In this document: positions 16,212 through 22,626 of the stretch, in pieces
Layout: each line of letters opens with the position of its first letter
Position numbering within the stretch: the first letter of the stretch is position 1
Sequence record: PZ445527.1
From: a phage
Strand: one strand, 5' to 3'
Length of the DNA stretch: 64,000 nt
Notes under the pieces: generated by a model
What the model saw: the letters and a program-made list of their open reading frames with translations, nothing else
What the model was told of the DNA's origin: nothing
Database searches by the model: none
Made by a program: the position numbers and the translations under genes

Positions 16212-16236
16212 ATTTTATTTCCTATTTAAGTTAATT

Positions 16237-16313
16237 TGGGGTGGCTAGTGGAACTCGAATCCACATAGGCCTGATTCACAATCAGGATCATTAACCAATT
16301 ATGATATAGCCAC
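16237..16313 (-). tRNA. tRNA-His(GUG)
   Basis: Clean cloverleaf: GTGGCTA/TAGCCAC, D stem TCAT/ATGA, CCTGA-TTGTGAA-TCAGG, GTGGA-TTCGAGT-TCCAC, encoded CCA. Confidence 0.9.
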
Positions 16314-16424
16314 AATTGAAAACTCGCAGGGTTAGCGAAACCATCCTCAATTAGCATGTTCTAGAATACTAATCAAGTTATCTCCTATTGCACGCAGCTC
16401 AAGACGAGTACGAATTTTCAATTG

Positions 16425-16531
16425 TGGCGGCTCTCAGAAACTCTTCTATTCTAGCCTCAGAAGCTTACCCCCGAACGCATGTCGGGAAAGTCTTTCCAAG
16501 CGCATCAAATAGCACCGTTACACTTTGAGCC
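16425..16531 (-). ncRNA. 107-nt structured RNA with a tRNA-like GGCTC/GAGCC terminal stem and encoded CCA
   Basis: No cloverleaf can be drawn. Internal hairpins GGAAA-GAC-TTTCC and CTTCT-11 nt-AGAAG. It sits in tRNA-gene spacing between tRNA-His and tRNA-Ser. Confidence 0.4.
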
Positions 16532-16679
16532 ATTGATGTATCAAGGAATAGAAGGACTTGAACCTTCATGAGTTAGACCATTTAACTCAACCGCTTTTTA
16601 GGGTATATTTCTAGGAGTGGATGTTCCTAGTAAACCTATTCGGCAGTCCCGTCTACCAATTCCGGCATATTCCAAGATT

Positions 16680-16952: not shown

Positions 16953-17191
16953 AAATTCTTTAATTTACTAAGGCTATTAGCTCGGCGTAACTACAGCACC
17001 TTCGCTTCAAGCGGAAGGAACCGCGTCATCTCGCAAACCCAATACACTATTCAGTTGCCGCTGAATCTAGTGGACTAATCTAGAACTTCTCCCGAGTCGT
17101 AGGGATCGTGCTTTTTGGCAGCCAGTCCTAGGTCGAGCTAATACCTTAGTGAATTATGATGAGGATTTCTCCCATATCAATTTATATAAAT

Positions 17192-17940: not shown

Positions 17941-18017
17941 TGGCGCGACTGATGGGATTTGAACCCACATTCCCTCCCGTGATAGGGGAGTACCATTACC
18001 AAGCCAGCCACGGTCGC
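17941..18017 (-). tRNA. tRNA-Asp-type with anticodon AUC (A34)
   Basis: Acceptor GCGACCG/CAGTCGC, CTCCC-CTATCAC-GGGAG, GTGGG-TTCAAAT-CCCAT, encoded CCA. The loop differs from the Asp CTGTCAC loop only at position 34. Confidence 0.7.
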
Positions 18018-21976: not shown

Positions 21977-22626
21977 TTTAAGTATTTTTAAGAACTCTCG
22001 TAAAAACTCTTAAAAATACAGACGATACCGGGAGAGTCATAAGTCTCACTCATTAAGTATTTCAAGACAAAATACAGTAACGTCTATTATTTTCCAGTTT
22101 AAGTCAGGGTGACTTAGTGGTTATGTCCTGCGGTATATTGAGGACTCGGTTAGGCTTGGGGTCATGACTTCCCGCCTTTTGCTGCTACTCAACAGGAGTT
22201 ATCGCGAATTACCTGTGCTATTGTGCACCATTAGTGACATCTCTCATGCCAGCATTTCCCACTTTGTGGATAGCTTGAAAAACTACTCCGATACGGAGAA
22301 AGAACTTCACTATCCTAGAATACCTTCTAAAGTTCTTCTTTAGCCTGGACATAGTTAAATCGTAATAAAACTATTCAGCAGACCGGTTGGTTAGTCTGGA
22401 ACCAACTACCGCGTGGTTTAGGCAGTGCGCAACTAACCTCGGAAGCTTTTACGTTAAAAGCACCAGTTATCCAGTTCTTACCGACCGTAGGATTCGAACC
22501 TACATCTTCCACCAGTTACGGCTTGATAATACCAATTATACTAGGACGGCAGTGTTACTACATAAGTGATTTCCACACCCCACTATTTATAAATTAGAAA
22601 AGAATTACTCTCTAATTTATGAATAT

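Follow-up and report, generated by a model that had tools for sequence, protein, structure and literature searches.

How are small stable RNAs released from a transcript in which they lie almost end to end with a tRNA? This question is raised by a stretch of phage DNA of 64,000 nucleotides (nt) (sequence record PZ445527.1; hereafter the window), where two RNA genes, RNA I and RNA III, and the gene of tRNA-His (GUG) occupy positions 16,237 to 16,531 on the minus strand. We found that an RNA helix of 20 base pairs (bp) joins the ends of these three genes and is kept by compensatory changes in related phages, and we propose with moderate confidence that this helix would let the host RNase III separate RNA I, RNA III and tRNA-His through a putative double cut.

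The window belongs to a T5-like phage, and the genes of this part all lie on the minus strand. The region matched 431 phage records, and alignment with T5 gave 98% identity over 461 nt. In the T5 RefSeq record (NC_005859/AY692264), the order on the transcribed strand is rna1 (144 nt), rnaI (107 nt), a 4-nt gap, rnaIII (106 nt) and tRNA-His (78 nt). Through the alignment, T5s02, T5s01 and T5t07 mapped exactly onto 16425-16531 (RNA I), 16315-16420 (RNA III) and 16237-16314 (tRNA-His), respectively. RNA I differed from T5 rnaI by one substitution (106/107 identical) and had the same neighbours, with RNA1 on one side and RNA III and tRNA-His on the other, while RNA III was identical to T5 rnaIII (106/106) and lay directly 5′ of tRNA-His. 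The original prediction had stated that stable RNAs of about 100 nt were reported in the T5 tRNA region, and its 107-nt unit is indeed one of them, T5 rnaI. For tRNA-His, Rfam gave a match of 58.6 bits and ARAGORN reported 16237-16313, to which the T5 annotation adds U-1 (16314) to give 78 nt.

The helix was first visible as an inverted repeat. The 14-nt arm GCCACAATTGAAAA (16309-16322) was the exact reverse complement of 16415-16428, in agreement with the original prediction, and the arms held the functional ends that it had assigned to them once they were read on the minus strand. One arm carried nucleotides 1-5 of tRNA-His (GUGGC, 16313-16309) together with the 3′ end of the RNA upstream of it, and the other began with the discriminator G and the CCA that end the 107-nt unit (16428-16425) and continued through CAAU into the start of the RNA enclosed by the arms. 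A repeat finder extended the arms to 18 nt with one mismatch, which becomes a U·G wobble in the minus-strand RNA. The resulting RNA helix comprised 20 bp, in which 16428-16409 paired with 16309-16328 and two pairs were G·U. Its 5′ arm (16409-16428, minus strand) consisted of the discriminator G, CCA, CAAU and the first 12 nt of RNA III, and its 3′ arm (16309-16328, minus strand) of the last 14 nt of RNA III, U-1 and nucleotides 1-5 of tRNA-His. The 4-nt spacer CAAU (16421-16424, minus strand), which separates the CCA of RNA I from the annotated start of RNA III and corresponds to the gap in the T5 and DT57C records, was located inside the helix with a pairing probability of at least 0.998. Within the 64-kb window, no other perfect inverted repeat with a loop of up to 150 nt reached 14 nt; about 0.095 such repeats are expected by chance per first-order Markov window, and 6% of the simulated windows carried at least one. 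The repeat taken alone is therefore only marginally significant, and it is the comparative evidence that makes the case solid.

The predicted fold of the 295-nt precursor favoured the helix. The duplex energy between the two arms was -28.9 kcal/mol, the pair probabilities ranged from 0.77 to 1.0, and the minimum free energy structure included the helix (z = -4.6), as did those of five homologous precursors. When the acceptor stem of tRNA-His was enforced in place of the helix, the predicted energy rose from -99.9 to -90.4, a cost of 9.5 kcal/mol. In addition, no unpaired linker separated the long helix from the terminal helix of RNA I in the predicted precursor. The intact helix would sequester the 5′ acceptor strand of tRNA-His and leave no single-stranded gap among the three RNAs. 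Because the helix is predicted to outcompete the acceptor stem and leaves no unpaired linker, RNase P would find no folded tRNA in the uncut precursor, and RNase E no single-stranded site. What the precursor does present is a predicted duplex of two turns. The original prediction had regarded the stem as a processing platform for RNase III or RNase E. The RNase III part of this proposal gained support from the covarying 20-bp helix and from annotated RNA III ends that lie 2 nt apart across it. RNase E is disfavoured, since the predicted precursor has no unpaired linker.

We examined relatives gathered from IMG/VR, metagenomes and GenBank phages. Scans of IMG/VR and the metagenomes with an invariant 20-mer of RNA I returned T5-like contigs only. 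Sixteen distinct helices were obtained, from Tequintavirus, Epseptimavirus, Enterobacter phage KKP_3711, Sugarlandvirus, Pectobacterium phage DU_PP_V and Erwinia phage KEY, with Hongcheonvirus represented. Standard pairs filled 97.8% of the cells, and 13 of the 20 pairs showed compensatory changes, which means that the complementarity was conserved in relatives, a point on which the original prediction had staked its case. None of 500 shuffles reached the observed values of pairing and covariation, and pairing fell to 32-44% when the partner was slid by 1-3 columns. Read on the transcribed strand, the non-Watson-Crick cells comprised 29 G·U and one A·C, the mark of a structure conserved as a helix in the RNA of that strand. 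The compensatory changes reached the helix core: C-G was replaced by A-U and A-U by U-A in Sugarlandvirus, U-A by G-C in DU_PP_V, and G-C by A-U in L041, a relative with a minimal interior. Sugarlandvirus carries CCAAAUUUGA/UCAAAUUUGG where T5 has CCACAAUUGA/UCAAUUGUGG, and the corresponding segments are CAAGUG/CACUUG in DU_PP_V and CAAUUA/UAAUUG in L041.

These core sequences also bear on the question of whether the inverted repeat acts mainly at the DNA level, as the border of a recombination or homing hot spot that exchanges small inserts, with CAATTG as the target. The T5 tRNA region is rich in HNH homing-endonuclease genes, T5 (CAATTG) and Sugarlandvirus (CAAATTTG) both have a palindromic core, and at least three mutually unalignable interiors, plus a bare hairpin, are found at exactly one junction in closely related phages. 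However, the palindrome is lost in DU_PP_V (CAAGTG/CACTTG) and L041 (CAATTA/TAATTG), although pairing is kept in both, indicating that CAATTG is incidental and that complementarity is what is kept. The ratio of 29 G·U to one A·C is likewise expected of RNA and not of DNA, and the inner arms differ by interior type yet always pair. We therefore rejected CAATTG as a sequence-specific DNA site and consider a mainly DNA-level role quite improbable. Mosaic exchange at the junction is real, and it can be compatible with a function of the helix at the RNA level.

The segment enclosed by the arms varied far more than the arms themselves. The original prediction had closed a 92-nt spacer into a rod; this spacer is actually the body of rnaIII, whose predicted fold has a 12-bp stem and three hairpins. 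Across the relatives, the interior between the arms ranged from 25 to 144 nt, and the flanks paired over about 20 bp in every case (19-21 bp, or in L041 14 bp followed by one mismatch and a further 4 bp). The interior types were the T5-type RNA III of 106 nt, a 63-nt RNA (S147, L022), a divergent family of 117-144 nt (KKP_3711, CRW-SP5, L014, L040, Sugarlandvirus, KEY and DU_PP_V) and, in L041, only a 25-nt hairpin made of 6 bp, one mismatch, 4 bp and a GCAA tetraloop. The notion that the interiors are unrelated cassettes had to be softened, in that the 117-144-nt types form one divergent family. This group and T5 RNA III are probably distant homologues, since L014 and T5 RNA III have similar 3′ hairpins. 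The helix was also kept where its neighbours were missing or displaced. It is present in Erwinia phage KEY, where RNA I is missing upstream, and the Klebsiella phages pzk-kv23 and DevonBitter (L043 ~680-820 and L045 ~670-810) keep it with an insertion of about 140 nt that parts the 3′ arm from tRNA-His. The stem is thus not the specific bridge between tRNA-His and RNA I that had been suggested. On these sequence comparisons, what at least three lineages of Demerecviridae have conserved is the helix, and not its contents. As a separate observation, ATTTGG was repeated at both junctions of the ~140-nt insertion.

We then compared the helix with the published rules for RNase III. Substrates of E. 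coli RNase III have about two helical turns (~20-22 bp) and are cut on both strands to leave 2-nt 3′ overhangs; at least 11 bp are needed from the scissile bond to the helix end, one set comprising a proximal box (pb) plus a distal box (db) suffices to specify a site, and the enzyme is inhibited by G-C or C-G at proximal-box positions 2 and 4 (PMC1540722). The helix of 20 bp, its two G·U pairs included, has this length of about two turns. The annotated 5′ end of RNA III (16420) pairs with 16317, the annotated 3′ end is 16315, and both ends follow CAAU; this pairing, with the 3′ end at 16315, yields a 2-nt 3′ overhang. The T5 and DT57C annotations together with this geometry place a putative RNase III cut on the 5′ arm between 16420 and 16421 (CAAU|UGA, minus strand), which coincides with the annotated RNA III 5′ end, and a second putative cut on the 3′ arm between 16314 and 16315 (CAAU|UGUGG, minus strand), which coincides with the annotated 3′ end and is staggered by 2 nt. 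From the cut to the helix end on the RNA III side there are 12 bp, and in L041 there are 11 positions followed by the GCAA loop. The outer side is shorter, with 6 bp past the cuts in addition to the 2 staggered pairs. Given the annotated ends, the antideterminants are absent, with U-A at inner pb4, A-U at inner pb2 and A-U at both outer pb4 and pb2. Positions pb2 and pb4 are likewise free of G-C and C-G in the Sugarlandvirus, DU_PP_V and L041 versions. For all interior types, cut at equivalent positions, the predicted fold had a stem of 12 bp and 2 overhanging nt. The same staggered-end geometry was found for RNA2H in the same operon.

Several observations weigh against the RNase III model. 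If the annotated ends of RNA III were themselves inferred without mapping, the argument from the 2-nt overhang is circular. The 6 bp outside the cuts fall short of the 11 bp required for one pb and db set, and the cut on the 3′ arm may therefore be inefficient. On the RNA III side, pb1 is A-U and pb3 is G-C, where the optimum is G-C and A-U, respectively. In Sugarlandvirus, the same cut geometry would give tRNA-His a 3-nt leader, for which RNase P is still required. As for the comparative evidence, the inner 10 bp covary mostly between unalignable interiors, which represent independent solutions and not traced substitutions, and the pairing of CCA with UGG is partly forced by separate constraints on RNA I and tRNA-His.

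Some of these points would also fit another role, in which the helix only closes RNA III against exonucleases and the usual tRNA enzymes part the three RNAs. RNase P, by acting at tRNA-His, would then also generate the RNA III 3′ end, an endonuclease specific for single strands (RNase E or another) would cut after RNA I, exonucleases would trim the ends, and the pairing of CCA with GUGGC would be a by-product of the complementarity between CCA and UGG. The 3′ end of RNA III does adjoin tRNA-His, as expected of an RNase P product, the inner 12 bp belong to RNA III and covary with the interior type, and CCA and the 5′ end of tRNA-His are separately constrained. However, the outer 8 bp are kept by compensatory changes too, including in the spacer, which reads CAAU or AAUU with matching changes in the 3′ arm, and the helix remains where the interior is only the tetraloop hairpin of L041. 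Moreover, the intact helix is predicted to be 9.5 kcal/mol better than the acceptor stem that RNase P needs, and unpaired nucleotides for RNase E are absent from the predicted precursor. We regard a mere closing stem as possible but doubtful.

Under the RNase III model, maturation would proceed as follows. The precursor would be transcribed from the minus strand, with rnaI, rnaIII and tRNA-His as part of a polycistronic operon of stable RNAs and tRNAs. The last 4 nt of RNA I, CAAU and the first 12 nt of RNA III would pair with the last 14 nt of RNA III, U-1 and nucleotides 1-5 of tRNA-His, and the resulting helix of about 20 bp would carry the remainder of RNA III at its tip. Host RNase III would cut each strand after CAAU with a stagger of 2 nt, and RNA III would be freed as a closed molecule with protected ends, its terminal stem of 12 bp carrying a 2-nt 3′ overhang. 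RNA I would keep the 4-nt trailer CAAU, which 3′ exonucleases would trim to the encoded CCA, and tRNA-His would keep a 1-nt leader. The leftover duplex of 6 bp (-9.3 kcal/mol) would be displaced by the 7-bp acceptor stem of tRNA-His. RNase P probably generates the RNA I 5′ end, since RNA I has an acceptor-like helix followed by NCCA. Both this role of RNase P and the order of events are what we infer from the observed structures.

RNA I itself (16425-16531, minus strand) reads 5′-GGCUC...GAGCC-G-CCA-3′, and the original prediction was right that it has a tRNA-like terminal helix (GGCUC/GAGCC), a discriminator and CCA without a cloverleaf. Neither ARAGORN nor Rfam/Infernal gave a tRNA match over 16425-16531, even at E ≤ 10, and a cloverleaf was discarded as a candidate fold, the covariation-supported fold being a rod. 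The consensus was an irregular rod of five helices, namely 1-5/99-103, 13-15/91-93, 20-25/81-86, 29-38/70-78 and an apical hairpin, followed by the discriminator and CCA. Among 19 distinct sequences, 91% of the cells were paired and 8 pairs showed compensatory change, compared with 35-48% pairing in slid controls. The terminal helix was compensatory in distant versions, with GGCCC/GGGCC in Sugarlandvirus and GGGCC/GGCUC in DU_PP_V. In KKP_3711 (L005 795-803), the RNA I homologue ends in ...GAGCC-G-UCA, not CCA, and this U keeps its place in the long helix through a U·G pair. RNA I thus shares with tRNAs and tRNA-like substrates of RNase P a terminal helix (here the 5-bp acceptor-like helix), a discriminator, an encoded CCA and a 5′ end that abuts the preceding RNA. 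It differs from tRNA (RF00005) in having a five-helix rod instead of a cloverleaf, and in the relative that ends in UCA.

RNA III (16315-16420, minus strand), the variable domain at the helix tip, was predicted (z = -2.85) to carry three hairpins on a terminal stem of 12 bp that ends in a 2-nt 3′ overhang, with TTCTAGAA as the apical loop of the middle hairpin. Across 26 haplotypes, RNA III had a mean pairwise identity of 98.9% with 8 variable sites, equal to tRNA-His, and RNA I had 94.2% identity with 24 variable sites. At the sequence level, RNA III is as constrained as the neighbouring tRNA-His. Rfam searches gave no family for RNA I or RNA III, at the gathering threshold and also at E ≤ 10. 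We also observed palindromic apical loops, UUCUAGAA in T5-type RNA III (16360-16367) and CUGAUCAG in the 117-144-nt family (3′ hairpin of L044 and L048). Judging from these loop sequences, the excised RNAs could dimerise through loop-loop (kissing) contacts.

Coding by the RNA I/RNA III region was rejected, as no overlapping open reading frame exceeded 46 amino acids. Many GenBank records of T5-like phages place one to three coding sequences for a "hypothetical protein" over RNA I, RNA III and tRNA-His (window 16226-16569). These are probably spurious, because the only reading frames there are of up to 46 amino acids and cross the RNA genes.

The last hairpin of RNA III lies close upstream of tRNA-His, and a consensus scan flagged this hairpin plus UUUUCAAUUG (16339-16323), as would be expected of a transcription terminator or attenuator ahead of tRNA-His. 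However, three such sites were found where 1.5 are expected by chance, and the U-run is paired in the long helix and is not conserved in the other interior types. tRNA-His follows immediately, and no promoter-like site was found on the minus strand between 16314 and 17153, so that termination would silence a tRNA without a promoter-like site of its own. The T5 record annotates tRNA-His as functional, and a swap of its anticodon yields an effective amber suppressor. An intrinsic terminator was therefore rejected, and a terminating or attenuating role appears extremely unlikely.

The 5′ end of tRNA-His is itself unusual. Its acceptor stem is GUGGCUA/UAGCCAC, as in E. coli, followed by C73 and an encoded CCA, and U, not G, is found at -1. 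With a likelihood that we rate as low, a narrower variant of the excision-socket reading given below would apply to T5 itself: this 5′ end, with U-1 where E. coli encodes G, would be set by an RNase III cut and not by RNase P. As a side observation, tRNA-His of Sugarlandvirus (for example, L044 679-755, Klebsiella phage Roth37) starts with GGGAUAU and has U-1 and U73 before CCA. The canonical G-1 is encoded by neither the T5-type nor the Sugarlandvirus tRNA-His.

Two other stable RNAs were found upstream. RNA1 (T5 rna1, T5s03; 16532-16675, minus strand, by T5 mapping) adjoins the 5′ end of RNA I and is tRNA-like, with a weak RF00005 match of 22 bits at 16543-16612. It resembles a degenerate class II tRNA: its D arm GCCGGAAUUGGUAGACGG is like that of tRNA-Leu, it has a T arm GAAGGUUCAAGUCCUUC, and its acceptor stem is GGAAUA/UAUUCC. 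It also has an insertion of about 65 nt and is without CCA. RNA2H (T5 rna2H, T5s04; 16972-17143, minus strand) stands at the start of the same transcription unit, and a promoter-like site was located directly upstream of it at 17180-17153 on the minus strand. According to the T5 record and our repeat I7, RNA2H lies inside a longer helix with 2-nt staggered ends. This helix, ACUAAGG|UAUUAGCUCG ... CGAGCUAAUAgCC|UUAGU on the minus strand with flanks to 16966 and 17150, forms a second RNase III-like site. Its arms were invariant in 26 of 27 variants and hence provide no covariation evidence either way.

Further along the window, tRNA-Asp (17941-18017, minus strand) carried the anticodon AUC (A34) instead of the GUC of T5, with the remainder 98% identical; A34 is unusual. 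G/Q34-U35 is the recognition element of anticodon nucleases of the colicin E5 type, and A34 could represent an escape variant against such nucleases. At 22479-22550 (minus strand), an Rfam tRNA match of 35.5 bits (gathering score 29) was obtained that ARAGORN did not report.

The tRNA cluster of phage T4 encodes two small stable RNAs, species 1 and 2. It is thus also a tRNA operon with small stable RNAs, without a sequence relationship to RNA I or RNA III (no Rfam family). A role of RNase III in the synthesis of T4 tRNAs is attributed to McClain 1979 and related work, as these are cited in PMC4810235. The stems flanking 16S and 23S rRNA in E. coli, whose operons are described in PMC4810235, and the R1.1-type sites of T7 are further counterparts of the present helix: they are likewise double-stranded RNA of about two turns, formed at long range or in a hairpin and cut on both strands with a 2-nt 3′ overhang, by which the enclosed RNA is freed and short tails are left for exonucleases (PMC1540722). 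Unlike these RNase III stems, the helix described here encloses a small RNA of 25-144 nt and has an outer part built of the functional ends of its neighbours, and its cleavage is putative.

The RNA I and RNA III genes are already known and publicly annotated. In the T5 record, both are misc_RNA features labelled "stable RNA with unknown functions", and the stable status of RNA I is taken from this annotation text alone. DT57C has the same annotation, including the 4-nt gap between RNA I and RNA III, and DT571/2 also annotates rnaI/rnaIII. In genes, order, lengths (107 and 106 nt) and the 4-nt gap, nothing of substance differs between the window and T5. The helix, its conservation and the processing enzyme are unannotated in the T5, DT57C and DT571/2 records. 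In the searched full-text literature, which does not cover the relevant papers of the 1980s, no paper was found on the sequence, ends or processing of T5 RNA I/III or on the helix. FEBS Lett 1983;158:123 is the paper on the two T5 tRNA-Ser genes. The analysis of the helix is thus an incremental addition to known genes, and no priority is claimed.

RNA I and RNA III have been annotated in T5 without a proposed role or route of maturation, and the RNase III model makes their biogenesis, not their function, testable. By analogy, the helix is of a known kind, the RNase III processing stem of a stable-RNA precursor; what distinguishes it is that it is built from the functional ends of its neighbours and remains constant while its contents diversify. 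More tentatively, and with a likelihood that we rate as low, the tRNA operons of Demerecviridae may contain a conserved RNase III "excision socket" that expresses fast-diversifying small structured RNAs of 25-144 nt, comprising the RNA III family and unrelated replacements. If this were true, the socket would stay fixed while its interior is swapped or remodelled between close relatives, which is the pattern expected if the freed RNAs take part in conflicts specific to the host, where they might serve as decoys for its nucleases or defence systems. Such a socket would be a natural design to release a defined small RNA from a polycistronic transcript.

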